32,820 nt of DNA, taken from IMG/VR virus record IMGVR_UViG_2541047822_000005; one strand, given 5' to 3'. Below, piece by piece: positions 3,563 through 32,820 of this stretch (position 1 is the first letter of the stretch; each line of letters opens with the position of its first letter). Both the position numbers and the translations under genes were made by a program. The stretch comes from a virus. Its lineage: Duplodnaviria > Heunggongvirae > Uroviricota > Caudoviricetes. The notes under the pieces were generated by a model. That model was given only the letters and a program-made list of their open reading frames with translations, had not been told where the DNA came from and ran no database searches.

Positions 3563-6500
3563 GCGTCGTATCCCCCCTGATCGCTGTAGTTACTCCTGGC
3601 TTTTGCCTTCAGCCTGCGTTCACGTTCATCAAGCTGGCGTGCCACCTCCCGCGCAATATCCTGCGCACTTTGTCCTGGCTGCGTCTGAATGATGATCTGC
3701 GTCGGTGCCTCAATCCGGTGAACGGGCGGTACAGTGGCTGCACGACTCACCATCGCTTCGCCGCCTTTCGCGGGAAGTGCCAAAGGATGCAACGGTGGAA
3801 GCTCTGCAGGCGCGGCAGCAACGCCCATCGTTCCGGCAACAACGGCAGCCAGTGCAGCTGTATTTCTCCGGCTGGTCACATTTGCCGGGCCGTTAACAAT
3901 TTCCGGCCCGTTTTCACCGACGATGCCAAACTGCCCGCGCGGGATATAGCCGCCGCTGTCATACATCCCCGCAAAGCCATATCCCCATGACGGAAAACCA
4001 CCCGGTGGCATCATCACTTTACCGTCTGCATTCACCGTCGCAGGTTGCTGACGCGTCACTCTTTCCGGCAGTTTCGCCTTTGCAGCCTCTTTACTGACAA
4101 TGCCGAGTTTCTCCAGCAACCAGGAAACGCCGGATTTCAGGGAGTCCAGCGGATGCATGACCATATTCAGCCCTTCCGCCAGTGCCTCCCCGAATCGTCG
4201 CCCCATTGCCGCTGCACTCTGCAGTTCGGCAGAGGTCGACTTAACGGGCGTAAGCAGATCAGTAAACCAGCCCCACAGCGCCTGTACTTTGTCGCCAATC
4301 CACTGAAACACAGGCTTAAGTGGTTCGAATGCAGCACTGATGGGACCTGCCGCCGCTTTGAATCCTTCCACCACGCCACCGAGAAATGCGGTGATGGGTT
4401 GCCAGTATTTCCAGACAACCAGCGCCACGCCCGCCAGTGCAGTAACCACAAGACCTATCGGACTGAGCAGAGCACCTAACAGACCAGATATGGCATACAG
4501 GGCAACGCGCAGCATCGCCAGCGGACCAGATGCAAGCACACGAAGCACCGCGCCTGCGGCAGCCAGTCCACCGCGCAGTACCGCCAGAGGATTCATAAAC
4601 ATCACAGCAACAGCACGTAAACCGGATAATCCAGACCGCAAAAGTGCAACCGGCGCACCTGCTACAGTTTTAAGGACATTTCCCGTCAGTGATGCCGTGC
4701 GGCGCAAAGACGACAACGGCGCAGTAAGTAAACCTGCGGCGTTGCCCGATGAAGCAAGCCCGCGTCGCAGCAGTGCCAGTGGTGCGCCAGCCAGCCAGGA
4801 CAACGCGCTGCTGGTTCGAGTTACTGCTGCCGTAACGGAAGATAACGTTTTGATACCCAGCACAGAGAATCCCAGACGGATCACTGCCAGCGGCCCCAGC
4901 ACTGCAGCCAGCGCCACCGCTAAGGTGCCGAGGCCGACGGTAACCGCAGCCACAACAGCCGATGCTTTCATCAGTGTGCCTGTCAGTTCCGGGTTAGCTT
5001 CCACCCAGCGACGCAACGCCCCCGTGACGCTTTTCACCGTGTACAGAATATCCATCAGCGGCTGGCGCAGCGTTTCGCCCAGGCTGCTGAAGGTGTTCTG
5101 CGCTCCGGTTTTGACCAGCAACCACTGCGCAGAAAGTGAATCCTTGTTAATGTCGGATTCTTTCTGCATGGAGCCGAGCGCATCATTGCCCGCTGTCAGT
5201 TTTAACTGACGCTGCAGTTCCGGCAGGTTGTTTGCCAGTTTCGCCGCGTCATCGCCAAACTCTTTACCAAACAACATAGTCATGGCAGACAGGCGCTTGT
5301 CCTGCGGCAGCGCGTTTACCTTCTCCAGCACGCGCTGGATGGTTCCCATCGCATCCTTCGTCATCTGCTTTTCAATCACTTCAGGATTGAGTTTCAGCAG
5401 ATTCATCCCTTCAAAGAAACTTTTGCTTTGCATGGTGGCAATGGACAATTCACGCACCATCGCGTTTGCTGCACTGGCTGCAACCTCTGGCGCAGCGCCC
5501 AGTGTCAGGAAGGTGGAACCCAGCGCCGCCGCTTTACGATAATCCAGACGGTCAGCCACACCGCCCAGACGTTGCATCACATCAATGATGTCTGCCCCTT
5601 TCGACATGGCGTTATCATCCAGATAGTTCAGCGCATCACCGAGCTGTTCAATATTGCGGGTGGGGATTTTGTAGAGCTGGGCGATTTTCCCCAGACTTTC
5701 TGACAGTTCATCCGCTGGCAGCTCAAAGGCTGTTGCCGCCTTTGCTGCCGTACTGGCGAAGGCCAGCAGGTCACGTTTCTGATCTTCCCAACTGTCGTCA
5801 GGGTTTGCGACGTTCATGCGCGCACCACCTTCAACCAGTGCAGCGAAATCCACAGCACCGTTTTCCATCGGCAACTGTTCGCTGGCAGCCTTGATGGCAT
5901 CCTGCATTTCATAAAAACGTGCAGTGCGGTTGCCATTATCGTCACGCAGACCATTGACCTGCTTTGCCACACCTTTCATGGCATCTTCCATGCTGGTATA
6001 GCTTTTTACTGCCGCCATCACTGGTGCGCCCATTGCCAGCCCTGCAGCCGTGGTGGTGGCTCCGGCACCTGCAATACGATCACGCACCTCCAGCGAACGG
6101 GCATAACTGGCACGCGCTGCATTCATCCTGCGCTGAGCTTCCCCCAGTCGCTTCAGCCGCGCCTCCTGTTTCGACAGTTCCTGGTTATAACGTGATGTTT
6201 CACGGGCTAAACGGGCAGTTGCTCCCGCATCGTCTTTCGCAGAAATTCCCGCCCGGTACAGTTCAGCACGCACAAGCGCCGTCTGCTGCTGCAGCTTTTT
6301 CTGGCGTTCTTCCAGGCGCTGAACAGCCAGCCGTTGACGGCCCAGAGCAACAACCTGACGTTGCGAAGGCGGCCCCATCGCTCCCAGTTCCTGACTGAGC
6401 AAATTTGCACGCTGGCGGGCATAGTTCAGCCTGTCGCCTAATTTCTGATTTTCTGCCTGCAGCTTTCGGAAGCTGTCCAGACTGCTCCCGGCCTGATCAA

Positions 6501-8959: not shown

Positions 8960-9532
8960 TCAGGGAGATTTATTGTTCTTATTTGCCGGAAATTTTCGAT
9001 AAATGGTAGAAACGCCTACATCAAAAATCAGTGCAATACGCTGTCTTGATTCTCCGGCCTCGAGTAAACGCCCAATCTGTGCCCACTGTTCGCTGGTCAA
9101 CTTAGGACGGCGTCCACCTACTCTGCCTTTAGCACGAGCTGCAGCCAGCCCCGCCCTGGTACGTTCAACTATCAGTTCGCGTTCCATTTCAGCCAGGGCA
9201 CCCATGACATGAAAAAAGAAACGGCCCATTGGGGTGCTGGTATCAATACTGTCAGTCAGGCTTCGGAAATTCACGCCACGCTGGCGCAGCTCTTCTATCA
9301 GCGTAACAAGATGCCGCATACTGCGCCCCAGTCTGTCCAGCTTCCAGACAACCAGCGTGTCTCCTGCCGATAGTGTCCTGAGCAGCTTTTTCAGCCCCGG
9401 TCTGTCGGACTTGGTGCCACTGATTTTATCCTCAAAAATCCGCTCACATCCCGCACAGTTCAGTGCATTGCGTTGCAAATCGGTGTTCTGGTCATTTGTT
9501 GACACGCGTACATAGCCAATAAGCATGATCAT
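8960..9532 (-). CDS. Hin/Gin/Pin-family serine DNA invertase
   Basis: 190-aa ORF with the serine recombinase N-terminus IGYVRVSTNDQ and a C-terminal HTH; sits beside inverted crossover sites flanking the tail-fibre 3' region. True start may be 2 codons downstream. Confidence 0.9.
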   Translation of the reverse strand: MIMLIGYVRVSTNDQNTDLQRNALNCAGCERIFEDKISGTKSDRPGLKKLLRTLSAGDTLVVWKLDRLGRSMRHLVTLIEELRQRGVNFRSLTDSIDTSTPMGRFFFHVMGALAEMERELIVERTRAGLAAARAKGRVGGRRPKLTSEQWAQIGRLLEAGESRQRIALIFDVGVSTIYRKFPANKNNKSP

Positions 9533-9581
9533 CCCCCTGAATAAAAACCGGAGATGATGCCAGTTAGCCGTTATCTCTGCA

Positions 9582-9607
9582 TTTTCATAAACGTTGGTTT
9601 GGGAGAA
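9582..9607. repeat. hix/gix-like inversion crossover site (left)
   Basis: TTTTCATAAACGTTGGTTTGGGAGAA is an inverted copy of the site at 11383-11408, sharing the 14-nt core TTCTCCCAAACCAA. Confidence 0.7.
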
Positions 9608-9913
9608 GCGGCAAAACGGAATGTGGGAACAGGGGAAAATCAGATACCTAGTATGTCAGAATGGACATCTGGGACAGGATGGAATAGAGACCCGTCGGGG
9701 AGAATAATACAGCGGGGATTTGCTATGGCATCAAATCAAACTAACATTTTATTCCCGATACCATTTCCGTATGACGATTTCGAAGTTATCGTTTGTGCAG
9801 CAGATACAGGAACAAATAAAGGGGCCGTAAATGTGTTGCAAAAATCGAGGCAGGGGTTTTCTGTTTCACAGGTTGGAAGTATGCCAGTCGCATACAGATG
9901 GATAGCGGGGTGA
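9608..9913 (+). CDS. silent alternative tail-fibre C-terminal segment
   Basis: Reading frame continuous through the crossover site; both copies encode GLGE in frame, so inversion would fuse this 102-codon segment to the constant part of H. Confidence 0.55.
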   Translation, partial: AAKRNVGTGENQIPSMSEWTSGTGWNRDPSGRIIQRGFAMASNQTNILFPIPFPYDDFEVIVCAADTGTNKGAVNVLQKSRQGFSVSQVGSMPVAYRWIAG

Positions 9914-10356
9914 TTGAAATGTATAAATTTGATCCAAAGAATGCATTATTCTATCCTGCTGCGTCAATTTCCGATTATAAATTGAGCGAAGATGAAATCG
10001 CCACATTCACTGATATTAGCGAGGAGGATGCAACCGAGTTTTTAGGATTCCCGCCGACTGGAAAAATCAGAGGGTCGGACGGTTATGGCAATCCTGCATG
10101 GGTTGAAATACCTCCACCATCACATGAGGAACTTATTGAACAGGCCGAATCAGAGAGGCAATTATTGATTAACCATGCCAACGAATACATGAACAGTAAA
10201 CAATGGCCTGGTAAAGCGGCTATTGGTCGTCTGAATGGTGAGGAACTGGCGCAATATAATTTGTGGCTGGATTATCTGAACGCACTGGAACTGGTTGATA
10301 CCTCCAGTCCGCCAGATATTGAATGGCCTACGCCTCCGGCAGTTCAGGCCAGATGA
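9898..10356 (+). CDS. alternative tail fibre assembly chaperone
   Basis: 152-aa ORF with Tfa-like translation, convergent with G inside the invertible segment. Confidence 0.75.
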   Translation: MDSGVIEMYKFDPKNALFYPAASISDYKLSEDEIATFTDISEEDATEFLGFPPTGKIRGSDGYGNPAWVEIPPPSHEELIEQAESERQLLINHANEYMNSKQWPGKAAIGRLNGEELAQYNLWLDYLNALELVDTSSPPDIEWPTPPAVQAR

Positions 10357-10936
10357 CATCCGGCGCGGTGCTGGTATCTGTTGCCGTCACCGCGTCAATG
10401 TAATCCAGCACAGCGTTAAGTCGGGTGGTTTCTGCCTGCGTCAGTTTACGTCCAGCCTGCAATTTCAGTTGAATCAGACTGATGGAAGCCATTGCAGTAT
10501 CAATCAGTGACTGACGCTGTGCTTCTGCCGTGTCTACTGCGGCGCTATGCTGTGCCTCGGTATCTGTCACCCATTTCTCACCATTCCATTCATCGTATGG
10601 AGTTAACGGGGCGATAGTGGTTGTATTTTCAGGATAATCACCCAGAGCTGTGATTTCTTTCGATTCTCCTGTTTCGGTGCTATAGACGATTTCACCGCGA
10701 TGGTCTGGCACATATTCCCATGAGTTAAAATCTGCAGAACGGCAAATTGCATAACCAGCTTCATATGAGCCAGGAGCATCTAAACAGGAATATGCGGGAA
10801 TGCCGACACCAATGGCAAGATATTCTGTTGATGTGGAAATATATTCCCGCGTTTCTCCGTTGTAGTTATAAACGGTAATGAAGCCAGGTTCCGTGGCGAA
10901 CCCGTTTTCATCTAAGGAAATTTCTTTTGCGGTCAT
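10328..10936 (-). CDS. G: tail fibre assembly protein G
   Basis: 202-aa ORF with Tfa-like translation directly downstream of H. Confidence 0.85.
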   Translation of the reverse strand: MTAKEISLDENGFATEPGFITVYNYNGETREYISTSTEYLAIGVGIPAYSCLDAPGSYEAGYAICRSADFNSWEYVPDHRGEIVYSTETGESKEITALGDYPENTTTIAPLTPYDEWNGEKWVTDTEAQHSAAVDTAEAQRQSLIDTAMASISLIQLKLQAGRKLTQAETTRLNAVLDYIDAVTATDTSTAPDVIWPELPEA

Positions 10937-20886: not shown

Positions 20887-22653
20887 ATGAACACCACACT
20901 GACACCCGCAGATCTCGATCCCCGTCGGCAGGCCATGCTGCTGTACTTTCAGGGATACCGCGTAGCCCGCATTGCTGAAATGCTGGGCGAGAAAGTTGCA
21001 ACCGTTCACAGCTGGAAAAAACGCGACAAGTGGGGTGACTATGGGCCGCTTGATCAGATGCAGCTCACCACCGCCGCACGCTACTGCCAGCTCATTATGA
21101 AGGAGCACAAAGAAGGGAAAGATTTCAAAGAGATTGACCTGCTGGCGCGCCAGTCGGAGCGCCATGCGCGGATCGGCAAGTTTAACAATGGCGGCAACGA
21201 AGCCGACTTAAACCCTAACGTCGCCAACCGCAACAAAGGCCCGCGTCGTCAGCCGGAAAAGAACGTTTTCACCGATGAACAGATTGAGAAGCTGGAAGAA
21301 ATCTTCCATTCCTCCATGTTCAACTATCAGCGCCACTGGTGGGAAGCCGGAAAAACCAACCGCATCCGCAACCTGCTGAAGTCACGCCAGATCGGTGCGA
21401 CCTTTTACTTTGCCCGTGAAGCCCTGATTGACGCCCTGCTTACCGGACGTAACCAGATTTTCCTTTCTGCCAGTAAGGCACAGGCTCACGTCTTTAAGCA
21501 GTACATCATCGACTTCGCCAAAGAAGTGGAGGTGGAGCTGAAAGGCGATCCGATGGTGCTTCCCAACGGGGCCACACTGTATTTCCTCGGCACCAATGCC
21601 CGCACGGCCCAGAGTTACCACGGCAACCTGTATCTGGATGAATATTTCTGGATACCGAAATTCCAGGAGCTGCGCAAAGTGGCTTCCGGTATGGCTATTC
21701 ACAAGAAATGGCGACAGACCTATTTTTCCACGCCATCCAGCCTGACACACAGTGCTTATCCGTTCTGGTCCGGTGCGCTGTTCAACCGTGGGCGCAACAA
21801 AGCCGACAAGGTGGACATCGACCTGTCCCACAGCAATCTGGCCCCCGGCCTGCTGTGCGCAGACGGGCAATACCGCCAGATAGTCACCGTGGAAGATGCG
21901 GTGCGCGGCGGCTGTAACCTGTTCGACCTCGACCAGTTGCGCATGGAGTACAGCCCGGACGAATACCAGAACCTGCTGATGTGCGAGTTCGTTGACGATC
22001 TCGCATCTGTGTTCCCGCTCAGCGAGCTGCAGGCGTGCATGGTGGACAGTTGGGAAGTCTGGACCGACTTTCATGCACTGGCCCTGCGCCCGTTTGGCTG
22101 GCGCGAAGTGTGGATCGGTTATGACCCGGCAAAAGGTACGCAGAACGGCGACAGCGCCGGATGCGTGGTGGTGGCTCCGCCAGCCGTGCCGGGCGGTAAG
22201 TTTCGCATTCTTGAGCGTCACCAGTGGCGCGGGATGGACTTCCGCGCCCAGGCGGACGCCATCAAAAAACTGACTGAACAGTACAACGTGACCTATATCG
22301 GTATCGACTCAACCGGCGTCGGTCACGGGGTTTACGAGAACGTGAAAGCGTTCTTTCCTGCCGTCCGGGAGTTTGTCTACAACCCCAACGTTAAAAACGC
22401 CCTGGTACTCAAGGCCTACGACATTATCAGCCACCGCCGTCTGGAGTTTGACGCCGGACATACCGACATTGCGCAGTCATTCATGGCAATCCGTCGCGCC
22501 ACCACCGCCAGTGGCAACCGCCCGACCTACGAAGCCAGCCGCAGCGAAGAAGCCAGCCATGCCGATCTGGCATGGGCAACCATGCACGCACTGTTTAACG
22601 AACCGCTGCAGGGCGAGTCCGCCAATACCAGCAATATTGTGGAGATTTTTTGA
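20887..22653 (+). CDS. P: terminase large (ATPase) subunit P
   Basis: 588-aa ORF with gpP-like translation. Confidence 0.9.
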   Translation: MNTTLTPADLDPRRQAMLLYFQGYRVARIAEMLGEKVATVHSWKKRDKWGDYGPLDQMQLTTAARYCQLIMKEHKEGKDFKEIDLLARQSERHARIGKFNNGGNEADLNPNVANRNKGPRRQPEKNVFTDEQIEKLEEIFHSSMFNYQRHWWEAGKTNRIRNLLKSRQIGATFYFAREALIDALLTGRNQIFLSASKAQAHVFKQYIIDFAKEVEVELKGDPMVLPNGATLYFLGTNARTAQSYHGNLYLDEYFWIPKFQELRKVASGMAIHKKWRQTYFSTPSSLTHSAYPFWSGALFNRGRNKADKVDIDLSHSNLAPGLLCADGQYRQIVTVEDAVRGGCNLFDLDQLRMEYSPDEYQNLLMCEFVDDLASVFPLSELQACMVDSWEVWTDFHALALRPFGWREVWIGYDPAKGTQNGDSAGCVVVAPPAVPGGKFRILERHQWRGMDFRAQADAIKKLTEQYNVTYIGIDSTGVGHGVYENVKAFFPAVREFVYNPNVKNALVLKAYDIISHRRLEFDAGHTDIAQSFMAIRRATTASGNRPTYEASRSEEASHADLAWATMHALFNEPLQGESANTSNIVEIF

Positions 22654-23693
22654 TGAAAGAACATATCGCGCCAGGCGAAACCGTAACTGCAGAAGAAACT
22701 AAAAAACCCGTTGCTGAGGCTTTCAGCTTTGGTGATCCCATTCCTGTACTGGACCGCCGCGAACTGCTGGACTATGTGGAATGCGTACAGATGGATCGCT
22801 GGTATGAGCCGCCCGTCAGTTTTGACGGACTGGCACGAACCTTCCGCGCCGCCGTGCACCACAGCTCCCCGATCAGTGTTAAACGTGACATCATCAGCAG
22901 TACCTATATTCCACATCGCCTTCTCAGCCAGCAGGCATTTACCCGTTTTGTGCAGGACTATCTGGTTTTTGGTAACGCCTATCTGGAGAAGCGCACGAAT
23001 CGCTTTGGTGAAGTTATTTCGCTGGAGCCTGCACTGGCAAAATACACCCGGCGCGGGCTTGACCTTGAAACATACTGGTTTGTGCAATACAGCCTGACGA
23101 CACAGCCGTATCAGTTCACAAAAGGTAACGTCTTCCACCTGATGGAGCCGGATATCAACCAGGAGATTTATGGTCTGCCGGGTTACCTTTCTGCCATTCC
23201 GTCAGCTCTGCTCAACGAATCCGCCACGCTGTTCCGCCGCAAGTATTACATTAACGGCAGCCACGCAGGCTTCATCATGTACATGACCGACGCCGCGCAG
23301 AACCAGGAGGATGTGAACAACATCCGCAAGGCAATGAAAAGTGCTAAAGGGCCGGGCAACTTCCGCAACCTGTTTATGTACTCGCCTAACGGCAAAAAAG
23401 ATGGCATTCAGATTATCCCGTTGTCGGAAGTCGCGGCGAAGGATGAATTTCTGAACATCAAGAACGTCAGCCGCGATGACATGATGGCGGCTCACCGCGT
23501 ACCGCCGCAAATGATGGGCATCATTCCCAACAACACTGGCGGCTTTGGTGATGTGGAAAAAGCGAGCCGTGTCTTCGTCCGCAATGAACTGATGCCACTG
23601 CAAAAGCGACTGCAGGAGCTGAATGACTGGCTGAATGAAGAGGTGATCCGTTTTGAAGCTTATGACTTAGGGCTTAAGGGCAAACGAGGCTGA
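22650..23693 (+). CDS. Q: portal protein Q
   Basis: 347-aa ORF with gpQ-like translation, overlapping the P stop. Confidence 0.9.
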   Translation: MMKEHIAPGETVTAEETKKPVAEAFSFGDPIPVLDRRELLDYVECVQMDRWYEPPVSFDGLARTFRAAVHHSSPISVKRDIISSTYIPHRLLSQQAFTRFVQDYLVFGNAYLEKRTNRFGEVISLEPALAKYTRRGLDLETYWFVQYSLTTQPYQFTKGNVFHLMEPDINQEIYGLPGYLSAIPSALLNESATLFRRKYYINGSHAGFIMYMTDAAQNQEDVNNIRKAMKSAKGPGNFRNLFMYSPNGKKDGIQIIPLSEVAAKDEFLNIKNVSRDDMMAAHRVPPQMMGIIPNNTGGFGDVEKASRVFVRNELMPLQKRLQELNDWLNEEVIRFEAYDLGLKGKRG

Positions 23694-23849: not shown

Positions 23850-23873
23850 GCGCGCTCGTATCCCCGCCACGCC
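23850..23873. other. cos site (cohesive-end region)
   Basis: The reverse complement of this stretch reads GGCGTGGCGGGG..., matching the start of the 19-nt cohesive end of phage 186 as I recall it; located between Q and the early region as in P2/186. Confidence 0.55.
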
Positions 23874-23916
23874 TGCCCGCTTTGTGTAGTGGTTTTCATG
23901 CACCTGCATGACATAA

Positions 23917-23942
23917 GCAAAAGCCCGCCAGTTCTGGCGGGC
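23917..23942 (-). terminator. putative terminator of the tum-like/dinI-like transcript
   Basis: Perfect 8-bp GC stem (GCCCGCCA / TGGCGGGC) followed on the minus strand by TTTTGC. Confidence 0.45.
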
Positions 23943-24076
23943 CTGAGCAAAAACGATCCTCAAACGATCATGCGATTTCATGCGGCATAGACATGCACAA
24001 CAGCACTAACGCCTCGCGTGGCTCGTTGTTCAACCTTGCGGACGGTAAAAACCAGTTTTATCGTCCGCAACGTTCG

Positions 24077-24310
24077 CTAATGTAACCAGCTGTCGTCCTC
24101 CCAGACCTGCTGCATTATTTCCATCACTCGCTTTTTATCTTCATCCAGTTTTAACCCGCTCAGCTCAACGCCGTTGGCACTGCCCTTACGGATACGAATT
24201 GCTGTTTTGGGATACAGAGGGCGCAAATTACGGTAAAGCTCGGATTCAAGGGCGTCCAGTGTAGCCTGGCTAATCTTCTGCTCTTTATCGATCATTATTT
24301 CAATGCGCAT
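24077..24310 (-). CDS. DinI-like protein
   Basis: 77-aa ORF whose translation resembles the DinI family; downstream of a LexA-boxed small gene. Confidence 0.75.
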   Translation of the reverse strand: MRIEIMIDKEQKISQATLDALESELYRNLRPLYPKTAIRIRKGSANGVELSGLKLDEDKKRVMEIMQQVWEDDSWLH

Positions 24311-24321
24311 ACAGATTTCCC

Positions 24322-24510
24322 TTAACTGGTTACGTCCATTGACCGGCAGTATTCATGGCTGCGGATTTTCGCCATCAGCTCGTCGGTCAATTCAGACACC
24401 CACTGGATAGCCAGCCGCTTTTCTTCGTCGCTGCACTCACTAGCCGCTACAAGCTTAATAAAAAAATCAATGCGCTGGAGCTTCAACGACTCCAAAAGAT
24501 AGTCCTGCAT
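24322..24510 (-). CDS. small LexA-regulated protein, possibly Tum-like antirepressor
   Basis: 62-aa ORF from the internal ATG, which has a strong AGGAGGG ribosome-binding site (track ORF is 24322..24537). Function assigned only by position and the LexA box. Confidence 0.5.
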   Translation of the reverse strand: MQDYLLESLKLQRIDFFIKLVAASECSDEEKRLAIQWVSELTDELMAKIRSHEYCRSMDVTS

Positions 24511-24558
24511 CTTCCCTCCTATCACGACCCCGGACATGCGTTAACTGTATGCATATCC

Positions 24559-24671: not shown

Positions 24672-27065
24672 TCAGTACCACTGGCGCCATTTGTCATCTT
24701 CCTGCAGTCGATGGTTGCGGTAAAAAATCCGTAGCCCGGCACCTGACGGAATGCTGCCACCACGCAGAAGCAAATCAATCTCAGATGCACTACCTTCAAA
24801 CCCTCTGGCAGTCAGTTCTGCCTCAAGCTGCAGGCGCTGCTGCTCCGAAATACTCTGTTTGAATGCTTTTTTCCGCTTCGGTTTTACCAGTCTTAACCTG
24901 GCTGTCAGCTCCCGGCGTTCCTTCTGGCCCATATTGTGGAGGTAATCGTGCAGTTCCTGCTCATTCATGGTTTTAATATCTGGCAAATCACCCCCTGATT
25001 TGTTCAGATTTTCAACAGGGGGACAGTTATTGCCACGAGTCCAAGGGGCGCAAGCGCCCTGGTCGGCTGCCGCCTCCTGAACGTCAACGGCCTTACGAAC
25101 CATTTTCCACTTCACGGCATGAGTGCAGATCTTGCCCTCTGCAATAGGTGACCAGATGCCATAAATACGAATGCCGTGATCGCCATAGGCGGTCGGCTCT
25201 TCGTTGATTTCATAAGCAGTTCTGATGAGGTGATATTTACGGGGAACCAGTACGCCGCCCTGCTTCATGATGTAGGTGGCAAAACAACCAGCATCAGCAG
25301 CAGCCAGAATGGCATCAAGACGCGGGTTATCCAGTACCGGCGCACCTGCTTTTTTGTCACCCTGTTGCCTTGCCGCCTGACCAGCCAGCAAGCGAAGTTC
25401 ACGGTAAGCCTGACGCCCCGGAATACCAAAGAAGCGGAATTGCTGAACACGATGCAGAGACGCCCAGGCATTCACGTATTCAGCGTTATCACGCAGAGAT
25501 TTACCCGTTTCCTTGCTGATCTCGCCAGCCAGACCACGACCGTCAATGTTCTTACTGATATATTTCGCGATGTAGCTTGTCGGCGTTCCTTTGCGCGGGT
25601 TAATCAACTCAGACTTAAAGCGCGGCCCAGTGTTATTGCCCAGCTCCTCGCGGTCTTCACGGATGGCAAACTTACGCAGTAATGCAGTGATGGCACGGCG
25701 GTCTTTTTTGCGCATGAAACACAACAGGTGCCAGTGAACTGTGCCATCATGATGCGGCTCAGCCACCCGCACGCCATACCAGCGCAACCCGGCTTTGTGC
25801 ATCGCCTTACGAAATGCAGCAAACATGCCGACCAGATAATCGCTGCTTTGTCTTACCGTCGCGTTTGTCCAGGTCGGGTTTGGTCTGCCGTTATTTAGCG
25901 TGGAATGGAAACGCGACGGACAGGTGATAGTGTAGAAAACGGCGCAGTCACCGCGCATTTCCGCGATAAGCTCCAGACCTTTAACACAGGCCATCATCTC
26001 ATTGCGGCGATGCGCAGGGTTGCTGCTGCTGGCGTTTACCACATCCTCCATGTCCAGCGTGTCGCCGTCTTCGTTCACCAGTTCATGAGAACGGAAAAAC
26101 TCCAGCGACTTACGGCGCTGCTCACGTTTATGCATCACGGCTTCATAGCTGACATAAGGAGATGCTTTTTTGCTGACTAGGCAAACAGCGCGCAACTGCT
26201 CTTCCCGCCATTCGCAACGCATCTTCCATAATTTCCGATACCACCAGTCGGCGCACAACATACGCGCCAGCGAACCCGGAATGAGTTCATAGGGCACGGG
26301 TTTACGGCGGTTTCTTTTCCGACGAAGTTTCTCAAACGCAGGCGGGATAACATCCAGACGCAGGGTTTCCGCAGCCACCTTTTCCCATGTCTTGCGGATT
26401 TCTTCTGGCTTAACGTCATCGGTGGCGTACAAATCACCACAAGCGGCCTCAAGACACATGCTCATATGCGCTGCTACCAGGGTGGACAGGCGTTTCACCT
26501 GATCCTGGCTCATTTCAGGCAGGATCAGCAGCCCCTCCAGCCCTTGATGGCTTGCCATAAAACGGAAAGAAACAGATAGCTGACTGTCACGTACACAATC
26601 CAGTCGCTCCAGACATGGCTTAATCGTCTCACGCAAATAGCGGGAATAAGCCTTTGGCCTGCCCAGGCTGCTGAAGTATTCGATACGTTGCATCAGCGGC
26701 TTGCTGATATGAGAAGGCTGGGCGCTGACATCTGCCAGAATGACCATGTCCGGGTTAAAACGCTGCTGCTCATGCGCCAGCTTTGCCCGGCTAATGAGCT
26801 TATCCTGCTCCATTTCGCGCTGGACAGGATCACGGGATTCATTAAAGAAATAACGCTCCCAGACCTGCTCACTCAGTGCCTCGCGGCGCAGTTGTTCCTG
26901 CTCGTTATCGGCAGCGTACAGAGTGATCAGGTTTGAAAGTGCAGACTCCGGCGCAACTTCCGCCGGATCCAGATAAGGGTTAATGGCCTTTTTCGGGCCG
27001 TTCCATGAAAATGCTGCGGCAGCCTCGTTAAAGCCGCTAGAGTTGCTCATATCGTCATGACTCAT
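24672..27065 (-). CDS. A: replication initiation protein A (rolling-circle nickase)
   Basis: 797-aa ORF with gpA-family translation in the expected early-operon position. Confidence 0.85.
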
Positions 27066-27919
27066 ACACGCACCTCGTACACAGCAGAACTATCCACGCC
27101 ACGCGAAGGATCAAATCCCATCCAGCAGCGCGACCCGGAAACAGCAATGATTTCTGTTGCAGATTTACTCTCGCCAGCTGACACGCCGATGCTGCGTTTT
27201 GCCTTGATGTAGTGGTGAGTGAAATTGCGATACAGCGAACGGATCAGGGATGTGTCACTGTTAGAAACAATGACCGGATGACCTTCTGATGATCGATATT
27301 CAAGAACGGATGCCAGGTGATACTGGTCATCTTCAGTGAAGCCGTTAGTGTGATAACCGGAAAACGTGCCGTCATACGGCGGATCGCAATACACCACATC
27401 CCCCGCCTTCAACATCGCCAGCGTTTCATCAAAGCTGGCGCAGATAAACGTTGCTCGCTGGGCCTTTTCTGCAAATGCGCGAATTTCTTTTTCAGGGAAA
27501 TACGGATTTTTATAATTACCGTAGGGAATGTTGAAATGCCCGCTCTTGTTATAGCGACATAAACCACGGTAACCGTGACGATTGAGATACAGGAAATATA
27601 CCGCTTTCATGAAATCAGTAATTTCAGTTGAGTAATTAAACTCCTGCCTTATGTTGTAATAAGCCACCTCCCTGTTTGCGATCTCAAATAAAACTCTGGC
27701 GCGAGATATAAACGATTCACAATCAGAGGCAACCTTTTTATAGAGGTTGATTAAATCAGGATTAATATCCGCAACCAGATAGCTGGGGTAATCCGTCTCC
27801 ATCATCACAGCACAGGAACCCGCGAAAGGTTCAACCAGTCGCGGGCCAGCAGGAAGGTGTTTTTTCAGTTCGGACATAATGGCGGTTTTATTTCCCACCC
27901 ATTTCAGGATGGTGCTCAT
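27062..27919 (-). CDS. Dam-like DNA N6-adenine methyltransferase
   Basis: Conserved ILKWVGNK N-terminus, FAGSCAV S-adenosylmethionine-binding motif and DPPY catalytic motif. Start taken at the internal ATG, which overlaps the upstream stop in an ATGA arrangement (track ORF is 27062..27979). Confidence 0.85.
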
Positions 27920-28143
27920 ACAGCACCTCCGTTGTAATGTTTGCCTTTCAGCTCTGCGATTTCCTGACAGGTAATGCAAAGCTGCACACCCGGAATGGCA
28001 CGGCGGCGTGCTGGCGGAATTGGCGCTTCACACTCAACGCAAAGCACGCGGGACACGCCCGGCGTTTTGGCACGGGCAGCACGGATATGACGTTGGCGTT
28101 CTTCTTCAACTCGCTGCTGTACGAGATCCATTGCATCAGCCAT
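27916..28143 (-). CDS. TraR/DksA-family C4 zinc-finger protein
   Basis: 75-aa ORF with CxxC-N17-CxxC (CVECEAP...CITCQ). Confidence 0.7.
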   Translation of the reverse strand: MADAMDLVQQRVEEERQRHIRAARAKTPGVSRVLCVECEAPIPPARRRAIPGVQLCITCQEIAELKGKHYNGGAV

Positions 28144-28382
28144 CAGTGGATCTCCTGCGCTTCGTTCTGGATTGCTTCAGCAGTCACACGCAGCAGTTCT
28201 GCCGCTTCGACGTGGTTTAGTTGGCGGGATGTGATATGACACGCCAGGCTATCAAGGCGAGCTGCCATTGCTTCAGCCCTTGCCCGGCGTTCTTCCAGAC
28301 GAGCCTCTGTCAGTAAAATATTAAGCCCTGCATCATCCGGTCCGGTTTTAGTCGTGATGGTTTCAATATTACGCATAATCAA
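28143..28382 (-). CDS. hypothetical early protein
   Basis: 79-aa ORF tightly packed in the early operon; no motif recognised. Confidence 0.5.
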   Translation of the reverse strand: MIMRNIETITTKTGPDDAGLNILLTEARLEERRARAEAMAARLDSLACHITSRQLNHVEAAELLRVTAEAIQNEAQEIH

Positions 28383-28443: not shown

Positions 28444-28785
28444 TTAATTCGGCATGGTTAGCCGTCTGGGAAATAAGCTCACCACTGCACGAAAATGATT
28501 CATTGCTTTAATCAGCTCCCGCTTTTCGTCAGTGGTCAGCTCATTAATGCTGATGCTATGACGTTCAGCTGGAATTTTTGCCATAAAGAATATGGCAGCC
28601 AGTGCCCGTTTATTTTGTTCATTATTGATATCCCGTGGATCACGCATATCTTTAATAAACCGCTCAAGCTCTGACTCAATATTCAGGCCAAAAACTTTCG
28701 CCCTTAACTCCGCAATGTGATTAAGTCCATTCAGGCGTTCACCGGGGCTTAATGGAACAGTTGCTGCAGCGCCATTAATTGCCAT
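28444..28785 (-). CDS. hypothetical early protein
   Basis: 113-aa ORF with an upstream GGGGGA ribosome-binding site; no motif recognised. Confidence 0.55.
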   Translation of the reverse strand: MAINGAAATVPLSPGERLNGLNHIAELRAKVFGLNIESELERFIKDMRDPRDINNEQNKRALAAIFFMAKIPAERHSISINELTTDEKRELIKAMNHFRAVVSLFPRRLTMPN

Positions 28786-29206: not shown

Positions 29207-29716
29207 TCACAGCAAACCGAATGAAGCACCAAGGCCAGTCATGGTATCAACTGCACTCGCCATCGCCGGGTTAGCCTGTAAACGGGCCTGCAATGAAACA
29301 GCAGCCAGCGCCATCAGTCGTGTTACAGAGTTAATGCTGCTGATAGCATCACGACGACCTGCACTGGTTTTTACATTGCCAGATACCGCACCTGCAGCAA
29401 TACGCCCGATCTCTGCGGTTGCACTCATGACGTAATGCGGCAGTTTCTCTTTTGCTACCTCATTAATCGGTACACATGGCAGGCAGTGAATCTGTGCCAG
29501 AAAACCATCTATCAGCGTTGAATCTTCAGTCAGATCGGTAAGCAGCCAGATTTCTGGCGCATTGAGCTGATGCGGTTGATCTGGGTTGAGTTTGTTTCGC
29601 AGAGTCTGGACATTCATTCCTGCACGTTCTGCCAGCTTCGCCATATTGTGACGAAGTGCAAAAGCTCTACAGGCTTCATCAAAATGCGGGTGTTTGGAAA
29701 TCTTATAATCAAACAT
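29207..29716 (-). CDS. cII: CII-like lysogeny establishment regulator (186 type)
   Basis: 169-aa ORF with a helix-turn-helix near the N-terminus, immediately after apl, matching 186 cII in size and position. Confidence 0.7.
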   Translation of the reverse strand: MFDYKISKHPHFDEACRAFALRHNMAKLAERAGMNVQTLRNKLNPDQPHQLNAPEIWLLTDLTEDSTLIDGFLAQIHCLPCVPINEVAKEKLPHYVMSATAEIGRIAAGAVSGNVKTSAGRRDAISSINSVTRLMALAAVSLQARLQANPAMASAVDTMTGLGASFGLL

Positions 29717-29748: not shown

Positions 29749-29991
29749 TTACTTACCAACAATGACGCGGAAGTTGGAATGACCGAGGGATTCACGGACC
29801 TGATCGGTTTTGTACATTAAATAACGCAGGCTTACGCGGCCTTTGTTTTTTTCTTTCTTGACCATGTATTTAGCAAGCTGACCATGGTGAATTTTTTGAT
29901 ACACGGAGCCGCGGGAGATACCTTCCCATTCCGCGAACTCAGCAGGCGTTGCCATCTCTTTTGGTACACGAATTGAAATATCAGTACTCAT
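29749..29991 (-). CDS. apl: Apl/Cox-like excisionase and transcription regulator
   Basis: 80-aa basic helix-turn-helix protein, first gene of the lytic operon, divergent from cI. Confidence 0.7.
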   Translation of the reverse strand: MSTDISIRVPKEMATPAEFAEWEGISRGSVYQKIHHGQLAKYMVKKEKNKGRVSLRYLMYKTDQVRESLGHSNFRVIVGK

Positions 29992-30101
29992 AGTGCAGTA
30001 TCTCTTAGTTTGGTTTCGTTTTATCTTGTTTTATGTGGTTTGGTTTTGCTTTTCAAACCATGAATGGATATTAAGATCACTTTTTATATGCGTCAAGAGG
30101 T
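29992..30101. promoter_or_regulatory. lysis-lysogeny switch region (divergent promoters and operators)
   Basis: 110-bp AT-rich intergenic region between divergent apl and cI, with repeated GGTTTG / CAAACC-containing elements. Confidence 0.5.
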
Positions 30102-30740
30102 TTGATTATGAGTTTAATCAAGGCGGGGAATGATAGTGGTGGGCGCGATGCGATTAATAGGCTTATTAAGGCTTACAACTTCAGCTCACGACAGCAGCTC
30201 TGCGAACATCTGGAAGTATCAAAAAGCACTATGGCTAACAGATACTTAAGGGATAGCTTTCCTGCCGAATGGGTAATCCAATGTGCCCTTGAAACAGGAG
30301 CTTCCCTTCTATGGCTGGCTACTGGTCAAGGAGATATGTATGCGTGTGAGAACGAAGAAACAAATCTCAAAAATGAACCTCCCGTCACTGTAAGACCACT
30401 TTCTAAGATCGTTGCTCCTAGCATCAAACGTGTTGAACTGAAGAACGGCGAACTGCAGCCAAGTGATGAAATTCTTCTTGATAGCAGCCTGCTCGATGGT
30501 GACTCATCCAACGCTTTATTTGTTAAAACAGCTAATGATAGCTTTGTAGTGGATACGTCTGTTAAACAAGTCAGTAATGGCTTCTGGTTAGTCGATATGG
30601 ACGGAGTTAAAAGCATCGTCAAAATTGCGCGCATACCCGGAAACAAAATAGTAGTTAACCAAGATGACACTTCATTTGAATGTTCTGTAGATGATGTGGA
30701 AGTCGTAGGACGTGCAGTCAAAGTAATCAAGAACCTCTAA
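30102..30740 (+). CDS. cI: CI-like immunity repressor (186 type)
   Basis: 212-aa ORF with an N-terminal helix-turn-helix and a distinct C-terminal domain; upstream of and co-oriented with int. Confidence 0.75.
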   Translation: MIMSLIKAGNDSGGRDAINRLIKAYNFSSRQQLCEHLEVSKSTMANRYLRDSFPAEWVIQCALETGASLLWLATGQGDMYACENEETNLKNEPPVTVRPLSKIVAPSIKRVELKNGELQPSDEILLDSSLLDGDSSNALFVKTANDSFVVDTSVKQVSNGFWLVDMDGVKSIVKIARIPGNKIVVNQDDTSFECSVDDVEVVGRAVKVIKNL

Positions 30741-30743
30741 CTT

Positions 30744-31784
30744 ATGACCATCAGAAAACAGCCGAACGGAAAATGGTTGTGTGAGTGCTATCCCAATGGA
30801 CGCAATGGTAAGCGCGTGCGTAAGCAATTTGCTACCAAAGGCGAAGCCATTGCGTTTGAAAGCTTCACAATGGAAGAAGTGAACAAAAAACCATGGCTAG
30901 GGGAAAAGGAAGATCGGCGACATCTATCAGAATTAATTGAGCTGTGGTATTCCCTGTATGGTCAAACACTCGCAGACCCCAAGCGCCTCATGGCGAAACT
31001 TAGAATTATCTGTAATGGTCTAGGCGATCCCATCGCCTCAGAACTGACAGCTGGTGAGTTTACGAAATACCGCGAAGCACGGTTAAAAGGTGAAGTACGA
31101 AATGAAGATGGCACGCTTATGTCGCCCGTTAAGCCCCGCACGGTAAATCTTGAACAGCGCAACCTATCATCTGTTTTTGGTACACTGAAAAAGCTGGGCC
31201 ACTGGTCAGCCCCCAACCCGCTTGCTGGGCTGCCAACATTTAAAATTGCTGAGGGTGAATTGGCGTTCCTGACCCCGGAAGAAATTAAACGTCTGCTGGA
31301 TGCCTGTGCTGATTCTCAAAGCCCCAGTCTGCTGATGATTGCAAAAATATGCTTGGCCACCGGCGCACGCTGGAGCGAAGCCGAAAACCTACAGAGTCAT
31401 CAGGTATCAAAATACCGTATCACTTATACCAAGACTAAAGGAAAGAAAAACCGAACAGTGCCTATTTCAAAGGATTTATATGAAGAACTGCCTAAGAATA
31501 GGGGAAAATTATTTACACCTTGTAGGAAAGCTTTTGAACGTGCGGTAAAACGAGCTGGTATCGAGCTACCAGAAGGGCAATGCACACACGTATTACGACA
31601 TACATTTGCAAGTCACTTTATGATGAATGGCGGAAACATACTGGTGCTGCGCGATATTCTGGGCCATGTCGATATAAAAATGACAATGATTTACGCCCAC
31701 TTCGCTCCCGACCATCTGGAAGATGCTGTAACCAAAAATCCTCTTGCTAACCTTGGATGGAGAAAATTAGAAAGTGCTTGTTAA
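30744..31784 (+). CDS. int: tyrosine integrase
   Basis: 346-aa ORF with the tyrosine-recombinase C-terminal motifs (R...HVLRHTFASHFMMNGG...LGH...MTMIYAH). Confidence 0.9.
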   Translation: MTIRKQPNGKWLCECYPNGRNGKRVRKQFATKGEAIAFESFTMEEVNKKPWLGEKEDRRHLSELIELWYSLYGQTLADPKRLMAKLRIICNGLGDPIASELTAGEFTKYREARLKGEVRNEDGTLMSPVKPRTVNLEQRNLSSVFGTLKKLGHWSAPNPLAGLPTFKIAEGELAFLTPEEIKRLLDACADSQSPSLLMIAKICLATGARWSEAENLQSHQVSKYRITYTKTKGKKNRTVPISKDLYEELPKNRGKLFTPCRKAFERAVKRAGIELPEGQCTHVLRHTFASHFMMNGGNILVLRDILGHVDIKMTMIYAHFAPDHLEDAVTKNPLANLGWRKLESAC

Positions 31785-31890
31785 TAACTATATCCAACAA
31801 TACCCATGGATATCGTACTTACTTATCATAATATATTTTTTATATATATGCCTTGAATTATATCTATGCGTATCAAAAAAAGGCTTTAAC

Positions 31891-32820
31891 ATGGATGAAA
31901 GGCCATTAACAAGTCAATACTTATTTAAACAATCACTTAGGATTCCTGTATTTTCAGCGATATACTTTGGTATATTTTCCTGGCTTGGACATTCCCCTCA
32001 ATTTGATAGTGAGGGCTTTAATAATTTCATTGCAATTAGCAAGCTTCCTATCGCCTTACTTTCTTTGTCCATACCATTTGTTGCTGTCGTAGCAAACATA
32101 CACCGCACAGTTCAAACAAACCGACAAATTGAGGAAACCAAGCAAAAGAATCTATCTGATAGCTACTATAGCCATCTAAAGTTCGTTACTGATTATTTCA
32201 CCAATTTACCTAACAAAACCATTAAACGCGAACGTCATTATGGTACTAAAGAGATAAGTTATAAAATAAACTACCCAATACATCTATATAGATATATTTT
32301 CATAAATAGCTCACCAGAGAAGGGACGGCCTAAAAATACAGATAAAGAATACATACGTGAAGTAAATAATCACTGGGTTGATATACTAAAAAACCTAGAG
32401 AAGATACATTCATCTAATCGTGGCTCTCAGTTTGCCGAAGTTTTAATCCGTCAAATGCAATCTCTTCATTCAATAGAAAAACACTTATCCGAACTTAATC
32501 GAATGCTTTGCCTAACTCCCATGGAGTTAAATGAACATGCAACTTTATACTTTGATGGATATGAAATGATTACTAACTTCATGTCCAGCATTGAACTTGG
32601 CGATACAATTGAAACCTACTTCAAATTTACCATTGATATTCTTGATATTACCGATAATTTCCTTTCATTCAAGGATGATGGCTCGTCTGGGCAAATCATT
32701 ATACTAGCAAGATTACTGAAAGATAATAATCCAGCTATCTTTGATGAAATTGTAACAAACAAAGGGAAGGCTCAACCTTCGTTGACCTACAATGGCGACA
32801 GATTGGCGACAGAACATTAA
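31891..32820 (+). CDS. hypothetical AT-rich protein with two predicted N-terminal transmembrane helices
   Basis: 309-aa ORF from the internal ATG (track ORF 31774..32820 overlaps the int 3' end). Two hydrophobic segments, IPVFSAIYFGIFSWLG and ISKLPIALLSLSIPFVAVVANI, are followed by a soluble domain; codon usage is markedly AT-rich. Confidence 0.6.
   Translation: MDERPLTSQYLFKQSLRIPVFSAIYFGIFSWLGHSPQFDSEGFNNFIAISKLPIALLSLSIPFVAVVANIHRTVQTNRQIEETKQKNLSDSYYSHLKFVTDYFTNLPNKTIKRERHYGTKEISYKINYPIHLYRYIFINSSPEKGRPKNTDKEYIREVNNHWVDILKNLEKIHSSNRGSQFAEVLIRQMQSLHSIEKHLSELNRMLCLTPMELNEHATLYFDGYEMITNFMSSIELGDTIETYFKFTIDILDITDNFLSFKDDGSSGQIIILARLLKDNNPAIFDEIVTNKGKAQPSLTYNGDRLATEH

Follow-up and report, generated by a model that had tools for sequence, protein, structure and literature searches.

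An intact orphan GATC methylase gene of the Fels-2/retron-Ec67 type overlaps the start of gene A in a P2-family prophage

The retron-Ec67 Dam methylase, the M.Eco67Dam of Hsu, Inouye and Inouye (1990), is a protein of 285 aa. Its ORF is carried by the Ec67 element (Hsu et al. 1990, as cited in PMC7826664) and, according to papers citing Dodd and Egan (1996), both Ec67 and Fels-2 lie within 186-related prophages. The Fels-2 counterpart, STM2730, is found in a DUF2732-traR-dam-A arrangement, and its record note also names the retron EC67 Dam. Other phages of Dam+ hosts likewise carry orphan GATC methylases (P1 Dmt, T4 Dam, phi80 DamL and the Dams of Stx phages). These are D12-class relatives of the protein described here, with 21-41% identity, and represent separate lineages in unrelated contexts, whereas the present Dam is fixed at the start of gene A. 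M.EcoMIV, a prophage Dam homolog of the ST131 strain EC958 (PMC4659465), was considered as a source of expression data for the present gene and set aside as another gene, coding for a 254-aa Dam in a Mu-like prophage.

We have analyzed a stretch of viral DNA of 32,820 nucleotides (the window), which is a 186/Fels-2-like prophage of the P2 family integrated at ssrA. Its dam gene (27062..27919, minus strand) encodes an orphan Dam-family DNA methyltransferase of the D12 class, alpha-type and N6-adenine-specific. The ORF is intact and starts at the minus-strand ATG 27919-27917, giving a product of 285 aa; the program-made ORF list has a longer frame that opens with a TTG at 27979, yet the ATG is favored by the PGAP annotation of relatives and by a Shine-Dalgarno sequence. 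The first-pass annotation had called a Dam-class N6-adenine methyltransferase with a DPPY motif, and this assignment was confirmed by the profile searches. The protein matched Pfam PF02086 (MethyltransfD12) over the whole profile (1-253/253) with E=4.9e-76 and 256.2 bits (cut-off 22), and TIGR00571 ("dam") with E=3.5e-96 and 322 bits (cut-off 114.85). Its score against the housekeeping-Dam equivalog NF008152 (NCBIfam) was 286.9 bits, below the cut-off of 441; it belongs to a paralogous phage lineage distinct from the host dam.

The window Dam is identical in sequence to WP_021539287.1, which NCBI names "retron EC67 DNA adenine methylase", and is 73% identical to STM2730, with the same gene arrangement. 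Its likeness to the retron-Ec67 Dam itself rests on depositor names and on the equal length of the two proteins. As in the Ec67/Fels-2 type, a 285-aa Dam lies between a TraR-like gene and A in a 186-related prophage; unlike in the Ec67 element, the cos-proximal cargo site of the window prophage contains no retron, and beyond this absence and a rare A8V substitution we have found no substantive difference. The search for the 186/P2 cos 19-mer did not find it in the window, and the cos-like stretch around 23851-23875 has a different 3' end. The same gene order occurs in Fels-2, in Klebsiella pneumoniae kp52145 and in Klebsiella, Yersinia and E. coli phages, with Escherichia, Klebsiella, Salmonella and Yersinia as the hosts of the dam clade. 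Among 5426 complete E. coli genomes, 1241 held close DNA copies of dam, and numerous Klebsiella and Salmonella phages carry such copies too. The gene is thus already known, an intact copy of the orphan GATC methylase of Fels-2/retron-Ec67-type P2-family prophages, an identity that the first-pass annotation had missed. It has been recognized since 1990, and roughly one in four complete E. coli genomes carries an automatic annotation of it, so that finding it once more adds little.

The window enzyme is nearer to the bacterial Dam than to that of T4. E. coli Dam (2G1P/4GOL) matched the window protein with E=1.7e-73 and 47% identity over 255 aligned residues, whereas T4 Dam was more distant (E=2.6e-18). 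Catalytic motif IV, D-P-P-Y, was read from the sequence at residues 179-182 (27374..27385, minus strand) and is kept in 100-101 of the 102 aligned family members; its codons (GAT CCG CCG TAT) themselves include a GATC. AdoMet-binding motif I was located by alignment with E. coli Dam and 101 homologues, and takes the variant form F-A-G-S-C (residues 32-36; 27812..27826, minus strand) in place of the F-V-G-A-G of E. coli Dam. Compared with the pattern FxGxG plus an acidic residue (D54), F32, G34 and D51 are retained and the second glycine is replaced by Cys. All 102 family members show the F, the G and the S-C-A replacement without exception, so the variant motif is probably functional. Six of the seven residues to which GATC recognition by E. 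coli Dam is attributed (PMC4417163) are identical in the window protein, and the seventh, N120, is Arg throughout the family. Among the 102 members, the GATC-contact residues K9, Y119, L122, R124, P134 and Y138 show no or almost no variation. The prophage and E. coli enzymes share the fold family, the DPPY motif and the GATC-reading residues. They differ by N120R (a base-contacting position), R137N, the FAGSC motif, the loss of five residues after DPPY and a C-terminal tail of 25 residues, in which the ribosome-binding site of gene A is encoded. N120R, R137N, the FAGSC motif and the deletion, all family-invariant, could change kinetics or flank preference. The prophage enzyme is moreover carried by a phage and belongs to the early lytic genes, presumably under repression in the lysogen.

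Three further minus-strand genes form a chain with dam, in the order DUF2732-traR-dam-A. The DUF2732 gene (28143..28382, 79 aa; PF10809, E=5e-29) shares one base with traR through a TGATG at 28145-28141. The traR gene (27916..28143, 75 aa) codes for a TraR/DksA-type C4 zinc-finger protein (PF01258, E=4.4e-11; TIGR02419, E=1.5e-18; phrog_54), and its homologue in phage 186 is annotated as non-essential. Gene A (24672..27065, 797 aa; PF05840, E=8e-128) encodes the rolling-circle replication initiator/nickase. The first-pass annotation had placed the methyltransferase in the early operon between A and a TraR-like gene with ATGA-type overlaps at both ends, and both points hold. At the traR-dam junction the stop codon TGA (27918-27916) and the start codon ATG (27919-27917) overlap, and at the dam-A junction the same holds for TGA (27064-27062) and ATG (27065-27063), the two ATGA being read at 27919-27916 and 27065-27062. 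The interval 27062-28143 that it had assigned to the methyltransferase does contain dam, but spans dam and traR together. Both overlapped starts are preceded by a Shine-Dalgarno sequence 5 nt before the ATG, GGAGGT (27930-27925) for dam, inside the upstream gene, and GAGGTG (27076-27071) for A, within the last dam codons. The 4-nt dam-A overlap was kept in 78/78 related IMG/VR loci and persists across genera despite saturated synonymous divergence.

From this layout we infer true translational coupling along traR-dam-A. Phage 186 offers a parallel, as its accessory gene orf84 likewise overlaps the start of A by 4 nt and the 186 record states that [quoted passage not shown]. In the window, dam replaces orf84, which encodes an unrelated, PAPS-reductase-like protein. 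A terminator of the 186 tM1 type was not detected at the start of the window gene A. Folding of the RNA from 27870-27989 gave -42.9 kcal/mol (z=-3.8; 1/200 shuffles equally stable) and a local hairpin (27907..27930, minus strand) that holds the dam Shine-Dalgarno sequence and AUG, the former paired with dam codons 2-5 and the AUG and traR UGA placed in or beside the loop. Explicit pair counting in nine relatives found 89% of the cells paired, with weak covariation, whereas RNAalifold over nine relatives did not recover the hairpin; we regard this predicted structure as plausible. For the dam-A junction, folding gave no stability beyond that of shuffled sequence (z=-0.67).

We have searched the window for a cognate nuclease. 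No restriction endonuclease family was found among its non-structural ORFs with Pfam, PADLOC and PHROGs, and the rest of the window follows the gene order of annotated P2-type structural genes. In particular, the window holds no DpnII/MboI-type or other restriction endonuclease domain; the neighbors of dam are the TraR-like gene and A, the latter a rolling-circle nickase. The earlier statement that no restriction partner lies nearby is accordingly correct. The adjacent or co-transcribed endonuclease of a type II restriction-modification system is missing, the best PADLOC model for the protein is the orphan class "oMTase" (E=6.6e-111), and the context was equally nuclease-free in relatives from four genera. 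The gene is hence an orphan methyltransferase.

We have then compared the GATC content of P2-family phages with and without dam. The observed/expected ratio was 0.68-0.92 in five dam+ genomes, one of which belongs to another genus and has a Dam of 50% identity, and 0.13-0.23 in five dam- genomes (P2, 186, Wphi, PSP3 and SEN1), where GATC was the most avoided 4-nt palindrome. PSP3 had been a candidate carrier of dam; its record ruled this out, and it was used as a dam-less control. Among IMG/VR loci, 70 dam+ gave ratios of 0.68-0.92 and 153 dam- gave 0.10-0.71. Genome-wide, the content differed four- to six-fold by dam presence, with phylogeny as a confounder, all contigs with the window type of A being dam+ and all those of the 186/P2 type dam-. 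Because dam presence tracks the A-protein type throughout, the independent gains of dam would be few, about two. Orthologous structural genes showed the same contrast (for example, 8-10 GATC sites in the terminase gene of dam+ phages vs 1 in dam- phages), and control palindromes showed no dam+/dam- difference. This comparison supports that the phage Dam would act on GATC in vivo. Undermethylation and MutH have been held responsible for GATC counterselection (Deschavanne & Radman 1991 and McClelland 1984, both as cited in PMC5014478, which treats phage undermethylation and MutH counterselection), and host Dam has been described as limiting for multicopy DNA (10.1101/2020.06.22.160242).

Taken with the conserved active site, these data make it likely, in our judgment, that the gene encodes an active, GATC-specific orphan Dam of the retron-Ec67/Fels-2 type, early-lytic, that supplements a limiting host Dam during lytic replication. 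In the lysogen, CI would keep the early promoter off and, dam being located behind this CI-repressed promoter, no phage Dam should be made. Upon induction or infection, transcription from pR would cover apl, cII, small genes and finally DUF2732, traR, dam and A, four cistrons that overlap one another. Ribosomes ending traR would thereby restart on dam, and those ending dam on A, so that the methylase would be produced along with the replication initiator. With host Dam limiting for fast-replicating DNA, the phage enzyme would keep the new phage copies GATC-methylated. This would lift the penalty on unmethylated GATC in Dam+/MutH+ enterobacteria, with protection from any GATC-overlapping restriction as a by-product. 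Both the timing of expression and the MutH/undermethylation rationale are deduced, and action in lytic replication rather than in the lysogen is the likely mode. Comparing the methylomes of the lysogen and of a cured strain, as had been proposed, would be uninformative, since dam should be silent in the lysogen and GATC is fully methylated there by host Dam; no new motif would be expected even with a fully active enzyme.

The putative early lytic promoter pR (TTGACG-17-TAATAT; 30068..30096, minus strand) was located by a promoter scan between apl and cI. It would drive the genes from apl and cII to traR, dam and A, and in these phages it is known as a consensus match only. A GATC lies in its spacer at 30075-30078, one nt upstream of the -10 hexamer. 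Of 67 related dam+ loci, 58 had a GATC at the same spacer position; they belong to 9 otherwise unrelated spacer/immunity classes, and each of the other 15 palindromic 4-mers was found there in 0-2 loci. One immunity class has GAAC instead and yet carries dam, and a promoter-spacer GATC is missing from ESSI2_ev015, the second dam+ lineage. Among dam-less phages, the P2 early promoter keeps a GATC that overlaps operator O1 and the PSP3/SEN1 early promoter also keeps one, though GATC was purged elsewhere in these three genomes.

The orphan status that the first-pass annotation had proposed is thus borne out, whereas the purpose it had suggested, anti-restriction or epigenetic control, is not established. 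The comparative evidence points first to relief of a GATC-linked cost paid by dam-less enterobacterial phages, and an epigenetic role is possible given the conserved promoter GATC. Such a role would make the pR-spacer GATC the main target, its fast re-methylation on newly replicated copies setting pR activity or CI binding in a feedback loop of the operon on its own promoter. [quoted passage not shown] We nevertheless hold this reading to be unlikely: pR is a consensus match, the site is already methylated by host Dam in lysogens, the GAAC class and ESSI2_ev015 have dam without the site, and a single regulatory site cannot explain a genome-wide easing of GATC avoidance. Its stronger version is a self-reinforcing circuit in which pR activity or CI occupancy depends on spacer-GATC methylation and Dam, produced in step with the initiator A, keeps the newly replicated phage copies "lytic" when host Dam lags. 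This we regard as distinctly unlikely; if true, it would also explain the Dam-dependent excision of Fels-2-like prophages. Phage orphan Dams are usually interpreted as anti-restriction functions (10.1101/2020.06.22.160242; PMC3091744), which would have the enzyme shield phage DNA from nucleases cutting unmethylated GATC or overlapping sites. In a variant of this proposal, N120R, R137N and the loop deletion relax or alter the specificity and widen the set of sites. The family-specific substitutions do fall at or near DNA-contact positions, and the first GATC base pair is the one least strictly read by Dam enzymes (PMC4417163). The hosts of the clade are, however, Dam+, and methylation-sensitive GATC-cutting systems would therefore not be expected in them. 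As for relaxed specificity, the principal specificity residues are unchanged and avoidance is eased for GATC alone, with other palindromes unaffected, which argues that GATC is the site that matters. Anti-restriction as the main role thus appears quite improbable to us.

A different possibility is that the methylase is dispensable and that only a translated ORF ending on the A start matters, the traR-A slot serving as a swap site for non-essential genes. The slot content indeed varies. In 186 it holds an RNase_T-type exonuclease, DUF5405 and the PAPS-reductase-like orf84, all annotated as non-essential; P2 has DUF5405, SEN1 a different gene, and others add DUF3850. The SEN1 gene upstream of A is labeled "queuine tRNA-ribosyltransferase" in its record, without Pfam support at E<=1e-3. 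The upstream gene overlaps the A start by 4 nt in 186 and SEN1 and by 11 nt in P2, whereas PSP3 has a gap, and the 186 annotation ties orf84 translation to that of A. A mere passenger would hardly show what dam shows, being intact in 74/74 uncut copies on IMG/VR contigs, with pairwise dN/dS of 0.05-0.33, far below 1. Together with the invariant or nearly invariant catalytic and DNA-contact residues and the GATC contrast, this argues for selection on the enzymatic activity itself and leaves dispensability very doubtful. The prophage ends, finally, carry an uncharacterized low-GC gene for a 348-aa protein next to int (31774-32820) and a small BRCT-like gene (1184-1666). Dam could in principle be the modification half of a restriction-modification or defense system with its nuclease elsewhere in the prophage, the 348-aa gene being one candidate. 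This gene was rejected as partner, as its product matched no nuclease in Pfam, PADLOC, PHROGs or PDB sequences and looks membrane-protein-like, with N-terminal hydrophobic helices and a weak "2TM effector" match. It is also read from the other strand, some 4 kb from dam, under a different promoter, and dam-bearing relatives have different genes, or none, at its position. Considering also the orphan class of the best PADLOC model, a hidden partner nuclease is extremely improbable.

If the phage Dam supplements host Dam as we favor, prophage induction would bring a burst of extra Dam activity, and the strand discrimination of mismatch repair can shift as a result. Dam overexpression also triggers some retron abortive-infection systems (10.1101/2020.06.22.160242). 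The dam+/dam- contrast in GATC content inside one phage family amounts to a natural experiment backing the old idea of GATC counterselection. Were the promoter GATC methylation-sensitive, it would offer a mechanism for Dam-dependent behavior of Fels-2-type prophages of Salmonella and Klebsiella.

Two minor features of the window gene were also considered. An antisense promoter-like site in dam (27489-27516, plus strand) was dismissed, the consensus matches of the region being fewer than those of its shuffles. The A8V substitution falls in a column occupied by Ala in 100/101 relatives; T4 Dam has Thr in this column, which suggests that substitution at A8 is tolerated.

The gene at 27062-27919 (minus strand) encodes, as the first-pass annotation had proposed, a Dam-class methyltransferase. 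The intact 285-aa ORF starting at the ATG at 27919 matched the whole PF02086 profile (E = 4.9e-76) and TIGR00571 "dam" (E = 3.5e-96), with the DPPY motif at residues 179-182 (27374-27385). Reading of the sequence confirmed the ATGA overlaps at both ends of dam, formed by the traR stop and dam start (27919-27916) and by the dam stop and the start of the replication gene A (27065-27062). No nuclease partner had been noticed nearby, and restriction endonuclease families were indeed absent from the entire window; the top PADLOC model was of the "orphan methyltransferase" class (E = 6.6e-111). Both the observation and its interpretation as an "orphan Dam" are correct; all that needs amending is the interval 27062-28143, which spans dam together with the TraR/DksA-type zinc-finger gene traR (27916-28143, minus strand).

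The window dam is a very common gene that has been described and named before. Its amino acid sequence is an exact match to WP_021539287.1/EQT61147.1, [quoted passage not shown] (NCBI). The 1082-bp region was found at ≥80% coverage in 1232 of 5426 complete E. coli genomes, mostly with 95-99% identity and annotated as "DNA adenine methylase", "TraR/DksA family transcriptional regulator" and "replication endonuclease", and also in 56 phage records, mainly for phages of Klebsiella, followed by Salmonella, Escherichia and Yersinia. Fels-2 carries a 73%-identical homologue at the same position (STM2730), whose own record points to its resemblance to the retron Ec67 methylase. The Ec67 ORF reportedly has 285 residues and shares 44% identity with E. 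coli Dam, in keeping with the 47% that we measured for the window Dam. According to the mentions of the original works in PMC7826664 and PMC6868368, the Ec67 element is a 34-kb insert with a Dam methylase ORF (Hsu et al. 1990), later placed as a 186-related prophage (Dodd & Egan 1996). Yersinia phage vB_YpM_MLG42 (PP599993) has an intact dam, 74% identical to that of the window, at 25989-26837, where the deposited record has no annotation. Proteins of 456-496 aa that join a window-type Dam to a Phage_GPD (tail gene D) domain occur in some E. coli records (P0008, P0009, P0102); they presumably stem from prophage remnants that have undergone deletion. The representative of the 90%-identity cluster holding the window Dam is an 804-aa replication endonuclease, probably because of read-through or because gene calls were fused over the dam-A overlap.

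The solved structures nearest to the window Dam were E. coli Dam (E = 1.7e-73), then DpnM and T4 Dam. We have aligned it with E. coli Dam and 101 full-length homologues (70-96% identity). R124, Y119, L122, P134, K9 and Y138 (E. coli Dam numbering) were invariant or nearly so, as were DPPY, F35/G37 and D54. In E. coli Dam, R124 fixes the fourth GATC base pair, Y119 intercalates, L122 and P134 touch the inner base pairs, and K9 and Y138 read the first one (PMC4417163). The prophage family differs consistently from E. coli Dam by N120R, R137N and motif I (FAGSC in place of FVGAG); it also lacks five residues after DPPY and has a C-terminal tail of 25 residues. The window allele deviates at only three 95%-conserved family columns (A8V, I63V and I205V), leaving the catalytic motifs untouched. 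Residue 8 (27896-27898) is Val in the window and Ala in 100 of the 101 homologues and in E. coli Dam (A11, within the LKWAGxK N-terminal motif beside the DNA-contacting K9); A8V, the sole unusual residue of this allele, is probably tolerated. Pairwise dN/dS of dam ranged from 0.05 to 0.33, and the gene was intact in all 74 copies uncut by a contig end among the IMG/VR relatives. The window Dam scored under the NCBIfam housekeeping-Dam equivalog cut-off (286.9 vs. 441 bits), which indicates a distinct phage lineage and not a recently captured host gene.

Enterobacterial phages lacking their own Dam avoid GATC, an avoidance ascribed to the action of MutH on undermethylated phage DNA (McClelland 1984; Deschavanne & Radman 1991, as discussed in PMC5014478). 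We have compared observed and expected GATC counts (second-order Markov expectation, whole genomes) in P2-family phages with and without dam. The two groups were very clearly separated. The ratio was 0.68 for the window prophage, 0.76 for Fels-2, 0.75 for Klebsiella 4LV2017, 0.81 for Yersinia MLG42 and 0.92 for ESSI2_ev015, which is of a different genus and has a 50%-identical Dam that likewise overlaps A by 4 nt. The dam-less phages 186, P2, Wphi, PSP3 and SEN1 gave 0.13, 0.20, 0.23, 0.22 and 0.19, respectively, and in each of these five genomes GATC ranked first in avoidance among the 16 four-base palindromes. Orthologous genes of phages with and without dam differed in GATC sites in the same direction: 8-10 vs. 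1 in the terminase, 6-7 vs. 0-1 in the capsid, 5-6 vs. 0-1 in the sheath and 5-7 vs. 0 in gene D. The other palindromes showed no difference between the two groups. IMG/VR contigs retrieved with three A proteins provided 223 loci, with ratios of 0.68-0.92 (median 0.80) in the 70 with dam and 0.10-0.71 (medians 0.35 and 0.25) in the 153 without, a contrast confounded with clade since dam presence coincides completely with A-protein clade and only about two independent acquisitions are sampled. Despite this confounding, an active GATC methylase used in lytic growth would leave just such a GATC-specific pattern.

The sole good coding-strand promoter-like site upstream of dam, TTGACG-17-TAATAT at 30096-30068, lies between apl and the divergent cI and corresponds to 186 pR. 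No convincing terminator or promoter was found between apl and A, so Dam should be an early lytic product. By the 186 paradigm, it should be repressed by CI and off in the lysogen, where host Dam already methylates GATC. The cistrons DUF2732, traR, dam and A each overlap the next, the first two by one base. Strong (GGAGGT) and GAGGTG Shine-Dalgarno sequences stand 5 nt upstream of the dam and A ATGs, respectively, the latter within the final dam codons. The dam Shine-Dalgarno and AUG are predicted to lie buried in a hairpin (27907-27930) in which GGAGGUGCU pairs with codons 2-5, and the 120 nt around the start fold far better than shuffles (z = -3.8), the classical layout for translation that depends on reinitiation. 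The pairing was kept in 89% of cells across nine relatives, which vary too little to lend covariation support. The 4-nt dam-A overlap was present in 78 of 78 IMG/VR loci and in the Mixta and ESSI2 phages (10 nt in Edwardsiella), persisting despite saturated synonymous sites between the window, Mixta, ESSI2 and Edwardsiella copies. On the best-supported reading, methylase and replication initiator would be made together after derepression; the phage enzyme would supplement host Dam, which is limiting for multicopy DNA (10.1101/2020.06.22.160242), and replicating and packaged phage DNA would become methylated at its ~100 GATC sites. We infer this expression timing, the coupling and the MutH rationale.

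Other roles for dam were weighed against this one. The gene content of the window rules out a restriction-modification pair with dam as one half, and the view that dam is a mere passenger or serves only to deliver ribosomes is at odds with the conserved catalytic residues and with the GATC contrast between phages with and without dam. Classical anti-restriction is possible but poorly motivated, the hosts being uniformly Dam+. Epigenetic action of Dam at the phage's own promoter would draw on a GATC (30075-30078) that the putative pR (30068-30096) carries in its 17-nt spacer, one nt upstream of the -10 hexamer. We have surveyed this spacer in the window, L001, L002, L007, L013, Yersinia MLG42, P2, PSP3, SEN1 and IMG/VR loci L019-L098. 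The pattern TTGAC(A/G)-N12-GATC-N-TAnnnT occurred once per locus, 2.75-3.6 kb from A as expected, in 58 of 67 related dam-carrying contigs, whose spacers fell into nine classes with little else in common; one spacer class had GAAC in place of GATC. Each of the remaining 15 palindromic tetramers occupied this position in 0-2 loci. In dam-less P2, the Pe spacer also contains a GATC, which overlaps operator O1 (19 of 72 P2-type loci), and PSP3/SEN1-type phages have one abutting the -10; both were kept though GATC was purged elsewhere in these genomes. Excision of the Fels-2-like prophage SopEPhi is favoured by Dam methylation, with target unknown (review PMC7380047). These findings suggest a possible methylation-sensitive early promoter or operator; a Dam-pR epigenetic loop, the residual novel possibility, we consider unlikely.

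Accessory genes are swapped in and out of the slot between the TraR-like gene and A, and in most phages the last of them overlaps the A start. In 186 (L006 4891-6748) it holds three non-essential genes (RNase_T-type exonuclease, DUF5405 and PAPS-reductase-like orf84), and the 186 record states that translation to the orf84 end appears necessary for A translation. P2 (27769-28044) has DUF5405 and SEN1 (25054-26166) a gene annotated as queuine tRNA-ribosyltransferase, without Pfam support; some dam-carrying phages add DUF3850/ASCH. The site is also represented at 5690-6016 in the Mixta phage and at 26150-26671 in PSP3.

The window opens with smpB (1-483, PF01668) and a complete tmRNA gene (698-1060); the remainder is a P2-family prophage integrated at ssrA, matching PGAP-annotated E. 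coli prophages and Fels-2 gene for gene. It runs through ogr (1693-1956), gene D, the tail, baseplate, lysis and head genes, portal Q (22650-23693), a cos-like site (~23851-23875), a DinI/Tum-type module (24077-24537), A (24672-27065, minus strand), dam, traR, DUF2732 (28143-28382), DUF5347 (28444-28785), a phrog_4312 gene, cII (29207-29716) and apl (29749-29991) to the 186-type cI (30102-30740) and int (30744-31784), both divergent from the apl-to-A genes. Directly after int, at the prophage end, a likewise divergent low-GC gene (31774-32820, plus strand, 348 aa, GC ~33-36%) encodes N-terminal hydrophobic helices and matched phrog_17460 and, weakly, a PADLOC "2TM effector" (E = 2e-4), with no match in Pfam or PDB; it is probably lysogenic-conversion or exclusion cargo. 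Between the ssrA attachment site and ogr, a 160-aa ORF (1184-1666, plus strand) has a weakly BRCT-like C-terminus (Pfam E = 1.2e-3, under cut-off), a weak PADLOC PDC-S48 match and a strong match to phrog_2561, labelled "DNA ligase", yet it is far too short for a ligase. In the region 23851-23975, the cos-like sequence (reverse complement GGCGTGGCGGGGATACG) is related to 186 cos; a strong terminator (23921-23944) comes after it, as does a pair of GATC sites (23955 and 23966) spaced by 11 bp. The DinI-like (24077-24310) and phrog_698 (24322-24537) genes resemble the PSP3 tumB/tumA SOS-induction module. A Hin/Gin-type serine recombinase gene (8960-9532) adjoins opposed tail-fibre C-terminus and assembly genes within the region 8960-10936, an arrangement that points to an invertible host-range segment like those of Fels-2, Mu and P1.
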